A stretch of DNA of 64,000 nucleotides from an uncultured Gammaproteobacteria bacterium. GTDB lineage: Bacteria; Patescibacteriota; Microgenomatia; UBA10105; UBA927. The notes under the pieces were generated by a model that saw only the letters and a list, made by a program, of their open reading frames with translations, searched no databases and was not told where the DNA came from. The translations under genes and the position numbers were made by a program. This document shows positions 4,111 to 43,930 of the stretch, piece after piece. The first letter of the stretch is position 1. Every line of letters begins with the position of its first letter. The stretch covers positions 18,647 to 82,646 of the forward strand of contig CAZUOM010000005.1 in the NCBI GenBank assembly GCA_964621305.1, given 5' to 3'.

Positions 4111-6391
4111 TATTAACTATTTTGTTTTCCGCCTGATAAACAGTTTCTCTTACGTGATCTACGGCATCCGGGTTTACCGAGACGCTTGTGATGCCCCAAC
4201 TGACAAGTTTTTCAACGAGCTCCGGATAATCTGACGGCGCTTGCCCGCAGATAGAGCTAGTAACTGCGCGTTTGGCACAGGTTTTGATAGTACGTTCAAA
4301 CGCCCACAGGACTGCATCATCAACTTCGTAAAAGTCTTTGGCTACCTCGCTATTGTCTCGATCCGTGCCCAGTATGAGCATGGTTAAATCATTGGAGCCA
4401 ATGGAAACACCATCAATCCCGATGTCAAGGTATTTTTCAATCAAAATGGCATTTGTCGGGACTTCGACCATCATCCACAAACGAAATGTTGATGAGCGAC
4501 AGAGCCCGGATCCTGTGACGATTTTCTTAACCTCCAAAAGTTCTCTGGGCGAACGCACAAATGGTATCATCAAAGAAAGATTCTTCAGTCCGTGCTTGTT
4601 GCGAACCGCTTTGATTGCTTCCAGCTCCAACTCAAACACCCGAGGATCGGCAATATAGCGCGCCGCACCGCGGTACCCGAGCATGGGGTTTTCTTCTTTA
4701 GGTTCGTACTTTTCCCCACCTTTGAGGTCTCGGAACTCATTGGTGCGAAAGTCGCTGGCCCGGTACACAACCGGCCGGGGATGAAACGCCTCACAAATCG
4801 TAGTCATCCCGGAAGATAAACGGTTGATAAAAAATACTTCTTTCCTTTCGTCGATAAGTTTCCTTGGGTGGGTACCTATTTGAGCCATCATAAACTCCGC
4901 GCGTAAGAGCCCCACGCCATCTACATTCATTTTTGCCACTTCTTTTGCACGATCCGGTTGAGCCAGGTTGACGTAGACATGGGTAGCGGTTTTTAAGTTC
5001 TTCCTGAAAACACCTTTGGCGATTGGGTTTTGGGTTCCACCTTCTCTTTTCACAACTCCTCGATATATCTCCCCCATCGATCCATTGACCGTTATTACCA
5101 AACCGTCTTTGAGCAGTTTCCTTGCTCCAGTTGCGCCAACGACACACGGGATACCCAGTTCCCTAGAGACGATGGCCGCATGAGACGTTCTACCTCCCTG
5201 TTCTGTGACAATTGCAACGACCTTCCTCATAACGGGAACATAATCCGGGTTGGTCATTTCTGCTACCAATACGCTGCCAAATTTTACTCTGTGCAGTTGG
5301 TTGGGAGACGAAAGTTGAGCCACCGGTCCGCTGCCAATACCCGGACTTGCCGCATCGCCCTTCAGCAGCAAAGCTGCTTCAGGGTAAACCCTCTGTGTTG
5401 CTTGCCCTGAACCCCGTTCTGCGGGGTGAAGGGTTGTTATCGGCCTCGTCTGCACTAAATATATCTTTTTTTTCTCAATGGCCCATTCGGCGTCCTGAGG
5501 AAAAAAATAGTGATGTTCCAATTTTTTGGCCAATACGGCAAGCTCAAGAATCTCCGCATCGGTCAATTTCTGCTTACTTCCCAGTGTTTTTGTTATCCTG
5601 GTTTCCACGTTTTTACTACCCTTTCGCGCGAGCATCAAATCCTGCGTGCGGGTCTGTTTAACTAAGATCGTTAACTTCTTTTTATCTACTTCATAGTGAT
5701 CAGGCGTCACGGCGCCCTGGACGATCATTTCTCCGAGTCCGTAAATTGCTTCAATGACAATTTTTGATTTATCGTTAGTTACCGGATCGATCGTAAACAT
5801 GATACCTGATTTCTCCGACTCAACCATTTTTTGTACTGGAACGGCAATACCAACCTTAAAGTGATCAAAATTGTTCGTTGCTCTGTAAAATATCGCTCGT
5901 GCAGTAAAAAGCGACGCCCAGCACTCCTTTACTTTTTCAATGAGGTTAGCTTCACCCTCTACGTTGAGAAACGTCGCCTGCTGGCCGGCAAATGACGCAT
6001 TCGGTAAGTCCTCAGCGGTCGCTGATGAGCGTACGGCAACGAGGGGATGTTTAAAGACACCGTCGCCGCCAAGTTTAAAGTAGACTCGAATTATTTCTTG
6101 TGCGATCGATTTAGGAAATTCGAAGCGCGTGATAAAATGCTGGATATTTTTTGAAGCTTTCTCAAGGGCTTTACTATCGCTTACCTCTAATCCTTCTAGT
6201 TCCTTCTTAATCCTCTTTTCTAGCTGGTTATGATTTAGGAAATCCTGGTAAGCCTTTACAGTTACGATAAAACCAGGAGGCACTGGGAATCCGGCCTTTG
6301 TCATCTCGCCAAGATTTGCTCCCTTTCCGCCGACGATATCTACGTCTTCGCGATCAACCTCATTAAACCAAACAACATACTTTGCGGGCAT
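4094..6391 (-). CDS. ppsA: phosphoenolpyruvate synthase (pyruvate, water dikinase)
   Basis: 765 aa; N-terminal GGKGANLGEM ATP-grasp motif, central phosphohistidine domain (GGRTSHAAIVSRELGIP) and C-terminal PEP-utilising domain; length fits PEP synthase rather than PPDK. Confidence 0.8.
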   Translation of the reverse strand: MPAKYVVWFNEVDREDVDIVGGKGANLGEMTKAGFPVPPGFIVTVKAYQDFLNHNQLEKRIKKELEGLEVSDSKALEKASKNIQHFITRFEFPKSIAQEIIRVYFKLGGDGVFKHPLVAVRSSATAEDLPNASFAGQQATFLNVEGEANLIEKVKECWASLFTARAIFYRATNNFDHFKVGIAVPVQKMVESEKSGIMFTIDPVTNDKSKIVIEAIYGLGEMIVQGAVTPDHYEVDKKKLTILVKQTRTQDLMLARKGSKNVETRITKTLGSKQKLTDAEILELAVLAKKLEHHYFFPQDAEWAIEKKKIYLVQTRPITTLHPAERGSGQATQRVYPEAALLLKGDAASPGIGSGPVAQLSSPNQLHRVKFGSVLVAEMTNPDYVPVMRKVVAIVTEQGGRTSHAAIVSRELGIPCVVGATGARKLLKDGLVITVNGSMGEIYRGVVKREGGTQNPIAKGVFRKNLKTATHVYVNLAQPDRAKEVAKMNVDGVGLLRAEFMMAQIGTHPRKLIDERKEVFFINRLSSGMTTICEAFHPRPVVYRASDFRTNEFRDLKGGEKYEPKEENPMLGYRGAARYIADPRVFELELEAIKAVRNKHGLKNLSLMIPFVRSPRELLEVKKIVTGSGLCRSSTFRLWMMVEVPTNAILIEKYLDIGIDGVSIGSNDLTMLILGTDRDNSEVAKDFYEVDDAVLWAFERTIKTCAKRAVTSSICGQAPSDYPELVEKLVSWGITSVSVNPDAVDHVRETVYQAENKIVNKVIKL

Positions 6392-38567: not shown

Positions 38568-39056
38568 TTGGTAATAATGAAAAAGACAACTGCGTTAATT
38601 ATTAGAGATGAACTTAAAAAAGCCAAACTTACCGGCCTTCCTAAAAAATTTGATGGTTTATCCAAAAGAGTCGATGGTTTATCCAAAAGAGTCGATGGTT
38701 TATCCAAAAGAGTCGATGGTTTGTCCAAAAGAGTCGATGGTTTGTCCAAAAGATTTGATGGTTTATCCAAAAGAGTCGATGGTTTGTCGAAAAGAGTCGA
38801 TGACATATCGAATCGAATGGACCAAGTAAACGACGCCGCTCGAATCATTCAGGAAAACGAGCAGAACCTGAAGGACTTAGGCGGACTCAAACGCCGACTC
38901 GACGTCTTGGACAAAATATTTGTTAGGGTCGACAAAATTGCCGGTGAAGTGACTAAATATCGAGAGGAGCAAGAACTCAACAGTAAAGCGCTATCCAATC
39001 ATGACTACCGCCTGGAACGAATTGAAAAACACCTCAACTTGGCTGTAACCAGCTAG
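38568..39056 (+). CDS. coiled-coil protein built around eight tandem heptad repeats (VDGLSKR)
   Basis: 162 aa; only plus-strand gene in the region; internal 21-bp x8 tandem DNA repeat; charged helical N- and C-terminal flanks; stop overlaps dnaE stop convergently. Confidence 0.5.
   Translation: MVIMKKTTALIIRDELKKAKLTGLPKKFDGLSKRVDGLSKRVDGLSKRVDGLSKRVDGLSKRFDGLSKRVDGLSKRVDDISNRMDQVNDAARIIQENEQNLKDLGGLKRRLDVLDKIFVRVDKIAGEVTKYREEQELNSKALSNHDYRLERIEKHLNLAVTS
38646..38813. repeat. 21-bp tandem repeat x8 (consensus gtcgatggtttRtccaaaaga)
   Basis: directly visible; in-frame (21 = 7 codons) within the 38568..39056 ORF; units differ at 1-2 positions. Confidence 0.9.
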
Positions 39057-42000
39057 TCACTTTCGATCCTTTTTGCATCATCGACCAAAATGGTAAGGCG
39101 GTCGTCCTTCTCGTCGACGCGGCCGGATACAAGAACTATTGCATCGCGGCTCCAGAGGTCGCTCGTTTTGGCAAATATTTTGGGGAATACGACTAATTCG
39201 ATGACTCCTCCTAAATCCTCGATGCGCACAAAAGCCATTTCGCTGTTGCCGGCTTTGGTAAGGATTTTCTTCACATTTGTAACCATGCCGCAGACAGTCA
39301 CGCGGCTGCCGACAGAATCCTGGTTAACGTCAGCGAGCGAAACAATCGGAGTTGCGCTGTCAACTGAAATTCGTGTCAGGACCGTCGCAAGGGGGTGCTC
39401 GGTGAGATAGTAACCGAGAAGCTCTTTTTCGTAGGACAGAAGCACCTGCTTGGGCAGTTCGGCTACAGCCGGAAGCGCATCCACCAGCTGATCCGAACCA
39501 TTTTCATCTGTGTCGAACAGACCAACTTGACCCCAGGCAACAGCCTTTCTTACCCGGTGGGCTTCCTCAAGAATAACAAGAAGTGCTTCCAACAGTTGTG
39601 CGCGGCTGCCGAATACATCCATGGCGCCCGCTTTAATAAGGCTCTCAAGAGTCTTTCTGTTTACTTTAGACAAATCAACTCGCCTTATAAAATCAGTAAG
39701 TGATTTAAACGACCCTCCGGCTGAATGAGCCGAAAGGATGCTTTCAATCGCGGCAGTTCCAACATTTTTGATTGCAGATAGACCAAAACGGATTTTCCCC
39801 CCTTCTATTGTAAATTCTACATTCGAAGCATTAACGTCTGGTGGCAAAAGCACTATCCCAATTCGTCGGCACTCCTCAACTGCACGGGCTATTTTTTCAT
39901 CGCGCGCCGGCCCTGTGGTTCCACGAGATTCAGCTGTCAGGACAGCGGTCATATATTCGACGGGGAAATTGGCTTTTAGGTACGCAGTCTGATAGGCAAT
40001 CATCGCGTAACAAGCTGCATGCGCTTTATTAAATCCGTAACCGGCAAACGGCTCGATTAAGTGAAAAATTTCTTCAGCTTTTGTTTTATTTATCCCATTT
40101 TTGACACAACCTTCAATAAACTTCTCTTTTTGCTTTTTCATTTCAGACGGAATTTTTTTACCAACTGCTTTCCTTAGCTTATCTGCATCACCCCACGAGT
40201 AACCCGCAAGCGTAATAGCCGTTAAAAGCACATCGTCTTGATAACAAATGATTCCGTATGATTGCTTGAGGACGTCTTTTAGTCGCGGATCCGGATAAGT
40301 AATATGCTTGGGATCGTGTTTTCTCCTGATAAATTCCGGAATAACTTGCATCGGCCCGGGCCGAAACAAAGCTACCATTGCCATAAGATCAAAAACAGTC
40401 GTCGGCTTGAGCTCTTTGACGTAGCGGCGCATGCCTGTCGATTCCAGCTGAAATATGCCTGTGGTTTCGCCAAGCGATAGAAGTTCAAAAGTCTTTTTAT
40501 CGTCAAGAGCTATTTTTGACAAATCAATTTCAGTCTTGTGAACAACTTTAATGAATTTTAGCGCTTGTGAAAGGATCGTGAGGTTCCTTAGCCCCAAAAA
40601 ATCCATTTTAAGTAGCCCAACCCCGTCCTCACCGACTGTGTACATGTCATACTGAGTTACAATTTTTTCGCCACGAGTTTCTTTCTGAAGTGGCGTGTAT
40701 TCTACTAGTGGTTTATCAGCAATTACTACTCCTGCAGCGTGCACCGATGCGTGACGGGCAACCCCTTCAAGTTTCCTAGCTACATCCAAAAGTTTTTTGG
40801 TTTCCGGTTCATTTTTATAAGCGCTAGCAAGATCCGGTGACTGCTCAAGCGCTTTATCAATTGTCATTGGTGCACCCTGATAGCCTGGGGGGATCATTTT
40901 AGCAATCCTGTCTGGCGCCGCGTACAGCATACCTAGCGCCCGGCCCGCGTCCCGCACAGATCCGCGCGCCTCCATCGTACCGAAGGTGACGATTTGAGCT
41001 ACCTTATCGTCACCATACCGGGCAGTCACATAGGCTATGACTTCATCCCGCCGATCGTCGGCAAAATCTAGATCGATATCAGGCGGACTAGGCCGCTGGG
41101 GGTTGAGAAAGCGCTCAAACGGAAGCTTAAAGTAAAACGGGTCGATACCCGTAATCCCCAGTGAATACGAAACAACCGACCCTGCCGCCGATCCTCGACC
41201 CGGACCAACTGCTATCCCGCGACTTCTGGCCCAATTGACGAAATCTGCAACAATCAAAAAATACGTCGCGTATCCCTTGGTCTTGATGATGTCTAGCTCA
41301 TACGTTATGCGCTCCTTGATGGCTTGGGTAATATCTCCATACCGCTGCGGAGACCGCTCCCAAACCAGTTTTTCTAAATATTCTGCAGGACTATCTTCAC
41401 CCTTCGGAAGGGGAAAATGCGGCAGGATCCAGTTTCCGATAGCCAATTTAATATCGCACATATCAGCAATCCGTTTCGTATTTTCGATTGCATCAGGATA
41501 CTGGATAAAGAGACCGCGCATTTCCTCTGGAGAACGCATGTAAAAATCCGGAGAGTCGATCATTGACAAGGGTCGGTTTTTCTCGATGATCGTGTGCTGG
41601 GTCTGCACGCAAAGAAGAATTTCCTGAGCCTCGGCGTCATCAGGGTCAACGTAATGAATGTCGTTGGTAGCCACAATCGGCAAACCAAGTTTTTTTGCAA
41701 GAACCACAAGCTTTTCATTGACCATATCGCAGTCAGGAATCTTTGGGTGTTTTTGAAGCTCCAGATAATAGTGCTGGGGCCCAAAAAGCTCCGCGTACTG
41801 TTTGGCAACGGTTTGGGCTTCTTCATCCTGATTGTTTCGCAAAAGTGAAGGTACTTGGCCGTTGAGGCAGGCAGACAGGCAGATTAAGTCATCGTGATAT
41901 TTTTGCAATAGTTCCCAGTCGATCCTGGGTTTGTAGTAGTACCCCTCCAAATGCGCGTGAGTAACCAACTTCATCAAATTTTTGTAACCGTTTTCGTTTT

Positions 42001-42280
42001 TGGCAAGTAAAACCAGGTGAAAGGGGTCAACGTCGACTTTGGCCTCTTTATCAAAGCGCGATCTTTTGGCTACATAAGTCTCAACGCCAATAATCGGCTT
42101 GATGCCTGCTGCTTTTGCCTTAAGGTAAAACTTAAAACTCCCGTACATCGCCCCGTGGTCGGTTAAAGCCAATGCATCCATCCCAAAGCTCTTTGCCCGC
42201 TCAATAAGGTGATCCAGCTTCCCCAACCCATCCAGAAGCGAGTACTCGCTATGAACATGAAGATGCACAAAATCGGACAT
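39053..42280 (-). CDS. dnaE: DNA polymerase III alpha subunit
   Basis: 1075 aa; N-terminal PHP domain [18 protein letters not shown], polymerase core and OB-fold C-terminus. Confidence 0.95.
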   Translation of the reverse strand: MSDFVHLHVHSEYSLLDGLGKLDHLIERAKSFGMDALALTDHGAMYGSFKFYLKAKAAGIKPIIGVETYVAKRSRFDKEAKVDVDPFHLVLLAKNENGYKNLMKLVTHAHLEGYYYKPRIDWELLQKYHDDLICLSACLNGQVPSLLRNNQDEEAQTVAKQYAELFGPQHYYLELQKHPKIPDCDMVNEKLVVLAKKLGLPIVATNDIHYVDPDDAEAQEILLCVQTQHTIIEKNRPLSMIDSPDFYMRSPEEMRGLFIQYPDAIENTKRIADMCDIKLAIGNWILPHFPLPKGEDSPAEYLEKLVWERSPQRYGDITQAIKERITYELDIIKTKGYATYFLIVADFVNWARSRGIAVGPGRGSAAGSVVSYSLGITGIDPFYFKLPFERFLNPQRPSPPDIDLDFADDRRDEVIAYVTARYGDDKVAQIVTFGTMEARGSVRDAGRALGMLYAAPDRIAKMIPPGYQGAPMTIDKALEQSPDLASAYKNEPETKKLLDVARKLEGVARHASVHAAGVVIADKPLVEYTPLQKETRGEKIVTQYDMYTVGEDGVGLLKMDFLGLRNLTILSQALKFIKVVHKTEIDLSKIALDDKKTFELLSLGETTGIFQLESTGMRRYVKELKPTTVFDLMAMVALFRPGPMQVIPEFIRRKHDPKHITYPDPRLKDVLKQSYGIICYQDDVLLTAITLAGYSWGDADKLRKAVGKKIPSEMKKQKEKFIEGCVKNGINKTKAEEIFHLIEPFAGYGFNKAHAACYAMIAYQTAYLKANFPVEYMTAVLTAESRGTTGPARDEKIARAVEECRRIGIVLLPPDVNASNVEFTIEGGKIRFGLSAIKNVGTAAIESILSAHSAGGSFKSLTDFIRRVDLSKVNRKTLESLIKAGAMDVFGSRAQLLEALLVILEEAHRVRKAVAWGQVGLFDTDENGSDQLVDALPAVAELPKQVLLSYEKELLGYYLTEHPLATVLTRISVDSATPIVSLADVNQDSVGSRVTVCGMVTNVKKILTKAGNSEMAFVRIEDLGGVIELVVFPKIFAKTSDLWSRDAIVLVSGRVDEKDDRLTILVDDAKRIESD
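42206..42280. repeat. direct repeat copy A (= first 25 codons of dnaE)
   Basis: 75 nt; ~91% identical to 43027..43101; all 7 differences are synonymous third-codon positions. Confidence 0.85.
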
Positions 42281-42288
42281 GAGGGAAT

Positions 42289-42675
42289 TTATGTTAGCTT
42301 TTCAATCTTTTCCTTTATTAGTCGAGCACTGCCAAATGCTTCGCTGATTTCTGCCTTGCTATATTGAGGTATATCAGGCGGATATCTAGATTCAATATAG
42401 AAACCGGTCAAAAGTTCGCATGCATCTCTAAGCTCTTCAAGAACTGCGTTTATTCTTACACATTCATTTAATAATAATGGTAATTCATGCACCCGAGGCG
42501 GTTCAACGCCGTGAAACACAAGGAATCCCTTTAAGAATTTTTCGGCGACCTGCTGGGAAAGAAAACATATTTGTGGATATATTTGTTCCTCTTTTAGTCC
42601 AACCTCCGCATAACGGTAATCAGAAATCGCGGAATCAAACCATTCTTTTGCTAATTTTTTTTTATGATCGTCCAT
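42289..42675 (-). CDS. HEPN-domain protein (toxin component of a HEPN/MNT pair)
   Basis: 128 aa; AEKFLKGFLVFHGVEPPRVHELPLL and YIESRYPPD match the HEPN (PF05168-type) core; overlaps the upstream MNT gene by 14 nt. Confidence 0.75.
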   Translation of the reverse strand: MDDHKKKLAKEWFDSAISDYRYAEVGLKEEQIYPQICFLSQQVAEKFLKGFLVFHGVEPPRVHELPLLLNECVRINAVLEELRDACELLTGFYIESRYPPDIPQYSKAEISEAFGSARLIKEKIEKLT

Positions 42676-42988
42676 AGAGCATAGTCCCTTCGGATAGTAT
42701 TCGGATAATAAAATAGTCGCCTAATGATATTCTTTTTTCTAATTCATCAGGAGTATACACGAGAGCATCCAGTGGATACCTGCGCTCCATCCCCCGAAGC
42801 GATGCGAACACTTCTTTAGTACGAAATGGTCTTCTCTTGTCGCTCTTTTTAATAATTAAAAGATCGATATCAGAATCATTGTGAATTTCTCCTCGAGCAA
42901 GGGAACCAAAAAGAATTACCTTATCCGGTTTATAACTATCGACGATCTTTTGAACCAATTGTTTCGCCTCCTCTTGAATATCATTCAT
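42662..42988 (-). CDS. minimal nucleotidyltransferase (MNT) domain protein
   Basis: 108 aa; [22 protein letters not shown] = GS-x9-DxD nucleotidyltransferase motif. Confidence 0.8.
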
Positions 42989-43026
42989 AACAGTTCAATT
43001 GTAATTATTAGTCTTGAGGAAAACAA

Positions 43027-43101
43027 CAGGTGATCCAGCTTCCCCAAGCCATCAAGAAGCGAGTACTCGCTATGAACATGAAGATGAACGAAGTCTGACA
43101 T
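43027..43101. repeat. direct repeat copy B: orphan duplicate of the dnaE 5' end (encodes [25 protein letters not shown] then 13 unrelated codons and a stop overlapping the MNT start)
   Basis: see copy A; reading frame from ATG 43099..43101 (minus strand) stays open for 38 codons. Confidence 0.85.
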
Positions 43102-43108
43102 AGTTTTT

Positions 43109-43930
43109 CTAGCGAGACGTATTTCTAGGCATCATTTCAAGGTCGGGTTTCCAAGAAGTAAGTTTTACCCGAGTGTCTTTTTGCGCTTTAGAATGAGACA
43201 TTGCTATTTCCGCTTGGTTAAATAGTTCGTTTGTTTTAATCGGTTCGTCTGGCCCGTCATAAAAGCTTATTCCAACACTTAACCCAATCTCTCTCATCCC
43301 TGGTACCTGATCAAAACTCTCCATTGCTTTTTCGATTCTTTGAATAAATTGATAAATAGTAATAGGTTTTGGGACATTTAATAGCGTTATTCCAAATTCG
43401 TCTCCAGAAAATCTACCTACTACATCATAGGGTCGTTTAGCAGCGTCGAATATATTTCCCATAGTTTTAATTACTTCGTCCCCCGCCTCGTGGCCCAAAA
43501 CGTCATTTACTTTAGTTTTGAAATGATCAAAATCAATATATAGGAAATAGACATTGCCGCCTTGTCTTTTTGCAAGATTAATCATACGCTGAGTAGATCT
43601 TGCCATCGATTCCTTATTTGGCAGACCAGTTAAAGGATCTTTACCAGATTTTATTTTTTCTCTCATTGAATCCCCAACATTGTGCCGCAATTGACTCACA
43701 ATCGAATTGATAGACTGTTTCACATGGACTCGAGCAAGAACGCCCGGCAAAAGATCGTTCCATTTCGCACGGTATGCCTCAAGCAGCATGTGATGGTAAG
43801 GGTCTTCTAATTCACCATGTATCGAATAAGTCAACTGTTCGCGGAGCCGTTTCTGCATGTCATTTGGTATTCTTCTAAAATCTGCTCTAGCAAAAATTAT
43901 TTTATCATCGCCTGTTATTTCTGCTGACAT
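43109..43930 (-). CDS. GGDEF-domain diguanylate cyclase-like protein (SGDEF variant) with ~100-aa uncharacterised N-terminal domain
   Basis: 273 aa; DPLTGLPNK...[25 protein letters not shown]...RFSGDEFGI are the conserved GGDEF-domain blocks; A-site reads SGDEF. Confidence 0.75.

Follow-up and report, generated by a model that had tools for sequence, protein, structure and literature searches.

The 64-kb window, by which we mean the whole stretch of DNA analyzed here, contains an intact dnaE gene that is preceded by a short cassette and by an orphan copy of its own 5′ end. The cassette carries two genes, one encoding a minimal nucleotidyltransferase (MNT) and the other a HEPN-domain protein. 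The features of the locus are as follows.

39053..42280, minus strand: intact dnaE (DNA polymerase III alpha, 1075 aa), taken from the open reading frame (ORF) list, with Pfam matches to PHP, DNA_pol3_alpha, finger, HHH_6 and OB
42206..42280, minus strand: copy A, codons 1-25 of the working dnaE, defined by the repeat comparison
42234..42265, minus strand: 32-nt block of copy A identical to 43055-43086 of copy B in the repeat comparison, a possible gene-conversion tract
42289..42675, minus strand: HEPN-domain gene, 128 aa, PF05168 (Pfam), overlapping the MNT gene by 14 nt
42662..42988, minus strand: MNT gene, 108 aa, NTP_transf_2/Polbeta, identified by Pfam, a GSx10DxD motif and the N-terminus of homologues
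42998..43026, minus strand: left end of the cassette, promoter-like TTGTTT-17 nt-TACAAT, found in the same place in 7 lineages and starting at the base adjoining copy B
43027..43101, minus strand: copy B, orphan dnaE codons 1-25 in their native context after the GGDEF gene, identified by the repeat comparison, a weak PHP match and two Logan assemblies
43109..43930, minus strand: GGDEF-domain gene (Pfam), the native upstream neighbor of dnaE, with gatA and gatB further upstream

The segments at 42206-42280 and 43027-43101 are 75-nt direct repeats that are identical at 68 of 75 positions. Read on the minus strand, both give the same 25-residue peptide, and the homology between them begins with the first base of the ATG and ends with codon 25. 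All seven mismatches (codons 2, 3, 4, 5, 16, 18 and 25) fall in third positions and are synonymous, an outcome with a chance probability of ~6e-5 if 22 to 25% of random changes are silent. In the entire window, this pair is the sole direct repeat that reaches 30 nt at a spacing of 200 to 4000 nt (blastn E = 1.6e-23). These results confirmed what an earlier note had read from the DNA, namely, silent-only differences between two copies of the first 25 dnaE codons. Its assignment of copy A as the real start of dnaE and of copy B as an orphan was likewise borne out, with copy A opening the 1075-aa gene and copy B a 38-codon ORF (42985..43101) that has a weak PHP match. As the note had also stated, the TGA of this ORF overlaps the ATG of the MNT gene (ATGA), and the MNT and HEPN genes are the only ones that Pfam places in the 746 nt between the repeats. 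The note had further described the spacer behind the GGDEF gene as preserved; the lengths agree (7 nt from the GGDEF stop to the ATG of copy B and 8 nt from the HEPN stop to that of copy A), but the two spacer sequences are unrelated. A palindrome present in both copies inside the 32-nt block, AGCGAGTACTCGCT, was considered as a recombination or regulatory hairpin and rejected as a by-product of coding, being perfect in just 6 of 75 functional dnaE starts and free of covariation (Fisher p = 0.69).

Cassette genes and expression of dnaE

For the MNT gene, we preferred the ATG start over the TTG at 42958 selected by the gene caller, since homologues keep the N-terminus; the TTG call also explains why the exact 108-aa protein is absent from records. 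The protein carries its GSx10DxD motif at residue 28, and its gene lies ahead of the HEPN gene. This layout resembles that of type VII HepT/MntA systems, in which a minimal nucleotidyltransferase with the same motif and a HEPN protein are encoded, in this order, by a two-gene overlapping operon. Unlike HepT, however, the window HEPN protein belongs to PF05168 and not to DUF86/HepT, and a motif scan of its 128-aa sequence detected no Rx4-6H motif, while the MNT protein scored 30 bits against the MntA family model, for which the cutoff is 60. PF05168 is the single family assignment of the HEPN protein, which had no NCBIfam match, and the nearest solved structures are uncharacterized. From its sequence, we predict that the MNT-HEPN pair is a toxin-antitoxin module.

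A strict sigma-70 consensus scan makes no call at the TTGTTT/TACAAT element, and it is the conservation of this element that suggests it may serve as the cassette promoter. Because dnaE begins 8 nt past the HEPN gene with no terminator between them, dnaE is probably cotranscribed with the cassette and coupled to it in translation.

Recurrence of the arrangement in related lineages

The same order of orphan dnaE 5′ piece, MNT, HEPN and intact dnaE was found in five more independently assembled lineages of Gottesmanbacteria, the group in which the dnaE tree places the host of the window. The left end of the cassette and the right junction, from HEPN to the dnaE ATG, are the same in all five. A sixth lineage, L131, has the MNT-HEPN-dnaE layout with no detectable orphan. 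Across lineages, the orphans are 12 to ~46 codons long and begin at the ATG wherever their start is visible; each of these keeps the ATG and at least 7 codons, and the 5′ part is never deleted, while the 3′ part has been trimmed in a lineage-specific manner. Since the genes further upstream vary among cassette-bearing lineages, these loci have no flanks in common apart from dnaE and the orphan. The earlier note had treated the arrangement as a single event in one genome, a view that does not survive its presence throughout a Gottesmanbacteria subclade and in distant lineages.

Empty sites, which the note had proposed to look for, were found. In most of 80 related species (for example, L015, L018 and L024), gatB or the GGDEF gene abuts a single dnaE start, with the GGDEF stop located 4 to 6 nt ahead of the dnaE ATG. 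This comparison is between species, and no empty-site strain of the window's own species was found. An apparent orphan in L028 proved to be a scaffold artifact at an N-gap and was discarded.

The dnaE site also hosts a second type of cargo. In L014 and L017, an element with a Y1 transposase gene stands alone behind an orphan, and in L130, the two cargos follow one another in series (orphan 1, MNT-HEPN, orphan 2, Y1 element, dnaE), so that this locus contains three dnaE starts. Neither the Y1 transposase gene nor its REP-like hairpin is present in the window.

Cassette phylogeny and cassettes at other loci

On the dnaE tree, cassette-bearing lineages are polyphyletic, and the cassette and dnaE phylogenies disagree. 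The cassette is more highly conserved than dnaE between distant clades and less so within the core clade. The cassette of L131 is a mosaic with its breakpoint at the MNT/HEPN boundary; a sliding-window search for a sharp mosaic breakpoint in dnaE just downstream of copy A found none.

Related cassettes also occur away from dnaE. At 5 of ~24 independent loci of this kind, the cassette is flanked by significant duplications of its own local target (z = 11 to 33). These repeats differ from locus to locus and are unrelated to dnaE; in L099, for instance, it is codons 1-8 of a HAD-family gene that are duplicated. The flanking repeats at L114 and L112 derive from tandem pilin/LamG paralogues and were left out of the count. 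Among metagenome loci whose HEPN protein is at most 70% identical, none of 36 adjoins dnaE. We searched viral contigs, phages and plasmids and did not find the cassette on any of them, nor did we find a donor with a near-identical cassette.

Probable descent of the orphan and the working copy from different dnaE alleles

We compared the orphan with the dnaE gene of the same genome in 8 lineages and counted 59 codons with synonymous differences and 17 with nonsynonymous differences or stops (78% synonymous), a ratio that departs strongly from neutral expectation (p ~1e-21). Several orphans carry lesions, including a stop at codon 13 in L014, a frameshift near codon 7 in L009, and early stops in L013 and L132. 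In the stretches that cannot be translated, past the L014 stop and the L009 frameshift, the bias persists at 14:5 (p = 2e-6). Because it holds beyond stops and frameshifts, the bias cannot be ascribed to selection on a peptide, and the two copies therefore probably descend from different functional dnaE alleles. The note's reading of silent-only divergence, that both copies evolved as coding dnaE 5′ ends, is supported by these counts.

Perfect-identity tracts beside clustered differences were seen in L007 (54 nt; clustering p = 0.0013) and in the window (32 nt; p = 0.08). Codons 3-4 read GAC-TTC in three orphans and in 7 of 75 functional genes, a shared state that hints at common descent of these orphans rather than repeated import. 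The orphans are too short for each to be assigned to a nearest neighbor among 75 dnaE 5′ ends; that of the window, for instance, matches its own dnaE at 68/75 positions and that of L130 at 67/75.

Origin of the duplication

We consider it somewhat probable that the insertion of a cassette with no recombinase was accompanied by a long target duplication and that the cassette was then kept, lost or exchanged by homologous recombination via the duplicated dnaE segment. The cassette would be the 0.75-kb unit composed of the promoter-like element, MNT and HEPN, and it would lie within a dnaE start that has undergone long target duplication. Incoming DNA in which the cassette was joined to a dnaE 5′ end, presumably taken up by natural transformation, would have recombined into the resident dnaE; this direction of transfer, like the recombination pathway, is what we infer. 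One side would have paired by homology within dnaE, and the joint on the other side would fall within the first 25 to 46 codons and would be either illegitimate or made via a preexisting orphan. In the window, what would be the resident 5′ end is stranded after the GGDEF gene as the orphan copy B, and the 5′ end beside the HEPN stop is the working copy A. The structure is old in a Gottesmanbacteria subclade and may later have been remodeled by RecA-type recombination between the dnaE repeats. Within genomes, such remodeling would have produced gene-conversion tracts and led to losses through the repeats; between lineages, it would have replaced alleles and parts of the cassette, with a second, nested insertion of the Y1 transposase element. 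The loci display conversion tracts and mosaics, together with nested copies, empty sites and a synonymous bias. At other genes, related MNT-HEPN cassettes may have inserted in the same mode. The primary event that created the duplication could nevertheless have been a duplication in situ. The earlier note had proposed Campbell-type or site-specific integration, and of these, homology-driven import, either Campbell-like or one-ended, is the best fit.

A duplication in situ as the full explanation seems rather unlikely to us. Break repair or template switching (staggered breaks or an MMBIR-like process) would have pasted in the cassette and duplicated resident codons 1 to 25-46, after which the copies would have diverged and been partly homogenized by gene conversion. 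Duplications of variable length at many unrelated targets, formed with no recombinase, are consistent with such a process, as are the existing conversion tracts and the synonymous states common to three orphans. Restriction-modification units show the same phenomenon, for which double-strand breaks have been suggested as the cause (PMC2853133). However, a duplicate that decays in place should accumulate mainly nonsynonymous changes, ~60% even with conversion resets, compared with the 22% observed (p ~3e-11), and should not be biased where it is untranslatable. A synonymous-only signature in an ultraconserved coding target argues for two functional alleles and hence for homologous recombination with DNA from outside, in preference to a staggered-cut duplication. 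Duplication in situ alone also leaves the discordance between cassette and dnaE, and the L131 mosaic, unexplained.

It is improbable that the orphan is maintained because it is useful, whether as a leader that feeds ribosomes into MNT, as a small DnaE N-terminal peptide or as a regulatory RNA, with purifying selection explaining the silent-only differences. The retention of the ATG and at least 7 codons in each orphan with a visible start, the intact 5′ part despite 3′ trimming, and the ATGA overlap with MNT in the window could all be read in this way. Against it stand the lesions in L014, L009, L013 and L132 and the persistence of the synonymous bias where translation is impossible. Moreover, ORF length, tail and MNT overlap are all nonconserved, and L131 has no orphan at all.

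Site-specific integration is very improbable. An integrase or a Y1 transposase acting in trans would have inserted a circular cassette with an att-like dnaE fragment, as do islands that regenerate tRNA, prfC or dusA ends. The regenerated 5′ end of the target gene, the use of the same gene in several lineages and the occupation of the same site by the Y1 element in L014, L017 and L130 would suit this mechanism. However, there is no integrase or transposase in or near the insert and no mobility gene among the called neighbors within 6 kb, and the window lacks the hairpin of the Y1 element. The junction ranges from codon 12 to ~46, the differences between the repeats are scattered with no identical core, the repeats at other loci are unrelated local sequences, and the palindrome of dnaE lacks conservation as a hairpin.

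Finally, an assembly artifact in which two strains with differing dnaE 5′ alleles were stitched together, a concern given that the source is a metagenome-assembled genome, is hardly conceivable, since a collapse of two alleles cannot join copy B at its codon 25 to the cassette promoter, the full 75-nt repeat is shorter than one read, and homologous architectures occur in independent assemblies of other lineages. In addition, the GGDEF gene and the copy-B-specific variants, and with them the copy-B junction, are present in two independent Logan assemblies (SRR6261452 and SRR6943130), both of whose contigs stop inside the repeat because the 32-nt shared block forces a k=31 graph to branch. The artifact that the note had wished to see excluded is thereby excluded.

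Relation to known systems

Insertion with long target duplication was described for restriction-modification units from 2000 on (Nobusato et al. 2000, Gene 259:99; Furuta, Abe and Kobayashi 2010, PMC2853133). These units are flanked by direct repeats that are long (>30 bp), variable and specific to the locus, that relatives with an empty site carry in a single copy, and that in many cases extend over a translation start or stop; how the insertions arise was left open (PMC2853133). Furuta et al. 2010 required a unit with no mobility gene, repeats of >30 bp that duplicate the local target, an insert of <20 kb and an empty site in a related genome. The window locus has no mobility gene, 75-nt repeats, a 746-nt insert and empty sites in other species, and it is therefore not unprecedented in kind (PMC2853133). 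Because its cargo is an MNT-HEPN pair and not a restriction-modification unit, we regard it as a variant that stands outside those cases. In both, a small selfish or defense unit that lacks a transposase or integrase is bounded by long locus-specific repeats. Here, however, the cargo is MNT-HEPN (elsewhere a PIN pair or a Y1 element), the insertion targets a coding 5′ end, that of an essential replicase gene, and the arrangement is old, spans a clade and includes nested repeats. Its repeats differ mainly synonymously, pointing to two alleles rather than a fresh duplication, and its empty sites are in other species and not in strains of the same species.

SXT/R391 elements (at prfC) and dusA-specific islands, which carry an integrase, enter a gene at its 5′ end and bring a replacement for that end. 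As at dnaE, the new start provided by the element keeps the target gene working and an orphaned 5′ fragment remains, but the dnaE cassette has neither an integrase nor a fixed att core, its junction is variable, and its insert is only 0.75 kb. In the minimal mobile elements of Neisseria, conserved genes flank a site whose alternative gene cassettes are exchanged through transformation and homologous recombination. The dnaE site is similar in that one site accommodates alternative cargos (MNT-HEPN, the Y1 element, both or none) with no need for mobility genes, and differs in that the downstream gene itself, through a duplicated piece, furnishes one of the homology arms, a part played in Neisseria by a separate, conserved upstream gene.

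A Campbell-type single crossover can duplicate a target segment, leaving one copy from the donor and one from the recipient. At dnaE, the synonymous bias and the cassette mosaics speak for such an origin of the two copies, but no donor allele was identified among the 75 dnaE 5′ ends and no breakpoint is evident in dnaE. To our knowledge, homology-facilitated or Campbell insertion is known as a laboratory outcome of transformation or conjugation and not as a natural, recurrent route for one cassette at one gene throughout a clade. In homology-facilitated illegitimate recombination, as described in one report, foreign DNA enters by homologous pairing at one side only (PMC3240628). A literature search did not find the present arrangement for toxin-antitoxin systems or at dnaE.

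Implications

How addiction-type pairs, such as toxin-antitoxin and restriction-modification systems, move without a recombinase of their own is an old question. The dnaE locus family offers a natural series for telling the mechanisms apart, comprising empty sites, single, nested and alternative cargos, trimmed orphans, conversion tracts and a mosaic cassette. The family further shows that an essential replicase gene can tolerate such insertions at its start and hosts them there repeatedly; in genome-reduced CPR bacteria, they probably rewire the expression of dnaE to the cassette promoter. More tentatively, MNT-HEPN cassettes may be mobile without a recombinase, and perhaps the same holds for other minimal two-gene modules of CPR bacteria; they would carry a duplicated piece of their target, excise through recombination between the repeats and reenter relatives by homology. 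If so, the ultraconserved dnaE start would be a favored landing pad because it combines homology across lineages with a single expression unit that includes an essential gene.

Layout of the dnaE repeat

The cassette (promoter-like element, MNT gene and HEPN gene) and its flanks are arranged as follows, in window positions and in the direction of reading:

Upstream of the GGDEF gene, minus strand: gatA and gatB
43109..43930, minus strand: GGDEF gene, then a 7-nt spacer
43101..43027, minus strand: copy B, an orphan duplicate of dnaE codons 1-25
43026..42998, minus strand: conserved promoter-like element
42662..42988, minus strand: MNT (minimal nucleotidyltransferase)
42289..42675, minus strand: HEPN, then an 8-nt spacer
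39053..42280, minus strand: intact dnaE (1075 aa), ATG at 42280, whose start is copy A

Copies A and B are identical at 68 of 75 nt. The seven differences lie in codons 2, 3, 4, 5, 16, 18 and 25; as the earlier note had stated, all are synonymous third-position changes. The homology runs from the ATG to codon 25, and the pair is the sole direct repeat of such kind across the 64-kb window (E = 1.6e-23). The window is part of MAG contig SBBN01000014.1 (GCA_005239695.1), and the duplication in it is not an assembly artefact. Two unrelated Logan assemblies (SRR6261452 and SRR6943130) contain the GGDEF gene followed by copy-B-specific variants, and both stop exactly at the last 31-mer still holding a copy-B-specific base, which is the forced branch of a k=31 graph given that a second copy exists. 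Collapse of two dnaE alleles was rejected as a source of artefact because it cannot yield the junction between codon 25 and the cassette.

The pair is MNT-HEPN at the domain level only: the MNT protein carries GSx10DxD and scores under the MntA cutoff, and the HEPN protein belongs to PF05168, lacks Rx4-6H and has TT1696, 1WOL and TM0613, all uncharacterised, as its nearest solved structures. The gene-called MNT start is a TTG behind GAGGAGG (98 aa; 42958-42988, minus strand). Translation from the ATG further upstream (42988) instead yields MNDIQEEAK as the N-terminus, a stretch conserved among homologues, so that GAGGAGG falls within the MNT coding region. There is neither a terminator nor room for a promoter between HEPN and dnaE, so the cassette and dnaE are probably co-expressed, judging from this layout. 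At the related loci L007 (5386-5393) and L013 (2450-2457), the HEPN ORF ends 8 nt inside dnaE (CAC ATG TCT GA) and its final codons are therefore encoded by the dnaE start, an overlap that suggests tight translational coupling.

Separately, a stretch inside dnaE (41310-41331, plus strand, antisense to approximately codons 317-323) is complementary to copy B (43040-43061) at 20 of 22 positions, with a poorer match to copy A; for the region, the naive expectation by chance is ~1e-3.

Recurrence, empty sites and alternative cargo

The nearest HEPN homologues (73-80% identical) occupy the same dnaE position. By aligning every dnaE start locally with the region upstream of it, we detected an orphan, a cut-off dnaE 5' piece upstream of the cargo, at every MNT-HEPN/dnaE locus except L131.

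Table. Arrangement at MNT-HEPN/dnaE loci
Window: orphan, MNT-HEPN, dnaE; orphan of 25 dnaE codons
L007/L008: orphan, MNT-HEPN, dnaE; orphan of 34-37 codons
L009-L012: orphan, MNT-HEPN, dnaE; orphan of ~46 codons with a 1-nt deletion
L013: orphan, MNT-HEPN, dnaE; orphan of 12 codons
L130: orphan 1, MNT-HEPN, orphan 2, Y1 element, dnaE; orphan 1 of 28 codons, orphan 2 of ~19
L131: MNT-HEPN, dnaE; no orphan detected by local alignment against its own upstream region
L132: orphan, MNT-HEPN, dnaE; orphan of 18 codons

All orphans open with the ATG, and homology extends no more than 3 nt upstream of it. The dnaE-site cassettes share a left end, GTTGTTTTC ... ATTACAAT (TTGTTT, 17 nt, TACAAT), and a right junction, TCCYCAC-ATG of dnaE. 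The window's TTGTTT hexamer begins at the base immediately following copy B.

A scan of species-representative genomes with a dnaE N-terminus yielded 80 Gottesmanbacteria and Levybacteria loci. At most of these, gatB or a GGDEF gene directly abuts dnaE, providing the empty sites that the earlier note had proposed to look for in relatives. At L015, L018 and L024, a stop codon lies 4-6 nt upstream of the dnaE ATG, the same context as that of the window orphan. At L014 and L017, an orphan (25 and 17 codons, respectively) is followed by a minus-strand Y1 transposase gene, IS200-like and REP-associated-like, with CAGGGTTCCACCCTG hairpins on both sides, and then by dnaE. Like the window orphan, that of L014 ends with codon 25 and carries GTT5, GGC18 and CTG25; in addition, its codon 13 is TAA and two of its His residues are replaced by Tyr. 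L130 bears the two cargos one after the other and has three dnaE 5' copies (region 714-2518): orphan 1 (715-798), orphan 2 (1568-1625) and the true dnaE start (2435). Its two orphans are ~94% identical, and the working start is more distant from both. An apparent orphan at L028 was rejected as a scaffold-gap artefact.

The Y1 gene itself contains an internal copy of its flanking hairpin, encoding QGGTL, in L017 (gene 5231-5968, minus strand; copy 5771-5785), L014 and L130. We also observed that TPA co-assembly MAG records under the title "uncultured Gammaproteobacteria bacterium" (L016, L019, L020, L028-L031 and many others among the 80) have dnaE nested in Gottesmanbacteria/Levybacteria clades; these titles are probably mislabelled.

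Probable lateral exchange

In the dnaE tree, cargo-bearing lineages are polyphyletic, with many empty-site lineages in between. The window, L130, L013, L007 and L014 form a core clade, joined next by L017 and then L009, and L131/L132 lie far off.

Table. Identities among cassette-bearing lineages
Within core clade: dnaE 83-89%, HEPN 77-83%, MNT 74-88%
Core versus L131/L132: dnaE 66-69%, HEPN 71-79%, MNT 75-82% (L131) and 59-64% (L132)
L131 versus L132: dnaE 84%, HEPN 84%, MNT 64%

A nucleotide profile placed the partner switch of L131 close to the MNT/HEPN boundary: its promoter and MNT are 76-86% identical to core-clade cassettes, and the sequence downstream of the boundary is 77-84% identical to L132. 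The genes upstream of the orphan are not the same among cassette-bearing lineages, leaving dnaE and the orphan as the sole common flanks. We found no sharp recombination breakpoint within dnaE, and comparison of dnaE 5' ends assigned no donor allele.

Synonymous bias and gene conversion

Summed over eight lineages, synonymous codon differences between an orphan and its own dnaE number 59 and nonsynonymous or stop ones 17, against an expectation of ~22% synonymous for random change (p ~1e-21). The bias is also present where the orphan is not readable in frame with dnaE: past the L014 TAA and the L009 frameshift, 14 differences are synonymous and 5 nonsynonymous (p = 2e-6), which means that it does not come from selection for an orphan peptide. 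From these sequence comparisons, the silent bias reads as an inherited mark: both dnaE 5' ends would have evolved within a working gene, which supports the earlier proposal of two coding alleles. Duplication in situ as the origin of the repeat strikes us as unlikely; a fresh duplicate with neutral decay and periodic reset by conversion predicts ~60% nonsynonymous changes and was rejected (p ~3e-11). Gene conversion has also been at work, as indicated by lineage-specific amino-acid states common to each orphan and its own dnaE (N3/F13/D24 in L009, C9/T11 in L132) and by perfect-identity tracts bordering on clustered differences (L007: 54 nt, p = 0.0013; window: 32 nt, p = 0.08).

Related cassettes at other genes

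A HEPN-alignment scan of metagenome contigs returned 36 cassette loci with HEPN at ≤70% identity, and dnaE was the neighbour at 0/36. Highly significant direct repeats (z = 11-33) surround the cassette at 5 of ~24 independent non-dnaE loci. They are distinct at each locus and correspond to the local target sequence; at four of the five, the upstream copy ends 51-62 nt ahead of the MNT ATG.

Table. Repeats at non-dnaE loci
L099: -6 to +25 of the HAD-family gene downstream (gene MIKFVYFD, orphan MINFVYFD), immediately behind secA
L122: 5' fragment, decayed, from a gene nearby
L133: intergenic DNA, 102-110 nt
L096: three copies of the upstream ORF's 3' end, which set a PIN-domain pair apart from the MNT-HEPN pair

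At L096 (1451-3501), the PIN-domain (VapC-like) pair and the MNT-HEPN pair are each trailed by a 63-79 nt target copy, an array resembling serial insertions at one site. At L125 (2557-4100), a serine resolvase gene follows immediately after a distant MNT-HEPN cassette (~40% identical) that is flanked by a 59-nt direct repeat, and a recombinase-mediated route may apply there.

Discussion

As the whole mechanism, we lean towards homology-driven import at dnaE followed by recombination between the repeats. This reading draws on the observed architecture and its recurrence, the empty sites, the cargos that are nested or replace one another, the synonymous bias that extends to untranslatable stretches, the conversion tracts, the mosaic cassette and the target duplications at other loci. 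DNA carrying the cassette fused to a dnaE 5' end would have recombined into the resident dnaE, through homology within dnaE on one side and an illegitimate join or a pre-existing orphan on the other, turning the resident start into the orphan and placing the incoming start behind HEPN. Later recombination among the repeats may have homogenised them and trimmed the orphan back to the cassette promoter, caused losses that restored empty sites or removed MNT-HEPN as in L014, and transferred the cassette into other lineages. Alternatives other than in-situ duplication are minor. The earlier note had offered single-crossover or site-specific integration without an integrase; the data favour the homology type and do not support the site-specific one. 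A search of viral contigs, phages and plasmids found no copy of the cassette.

The arrangement is not confined to this genome, and its kind is already known. It corresponds to "insertion with long target duplication", whose definition on restriction-modification units comprises an insert without mobility genes and repeats of >30 bp, variable in length and present once at the empty site (PMC2853133). Those repeats frequently span a translation start or stop, and the majority of cases come from naturally competent species; double-strand breakage has been suggested as the cause and a repeat-using life cycle hypothesised, with the mechanism unsolved (PMC2853133). Another route that has been discussed combines a duplication and homologous recombination with a diverged locus (PMC3457768). 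We found no account in the literature of such insertion for MNT-HEPN, other toxin-antitoxin pairs or dnaE. The dnaE-site cassette adds a variant to this known, mechanistically unsolved phenomenon, and one for which the comparative material is unusually informative.
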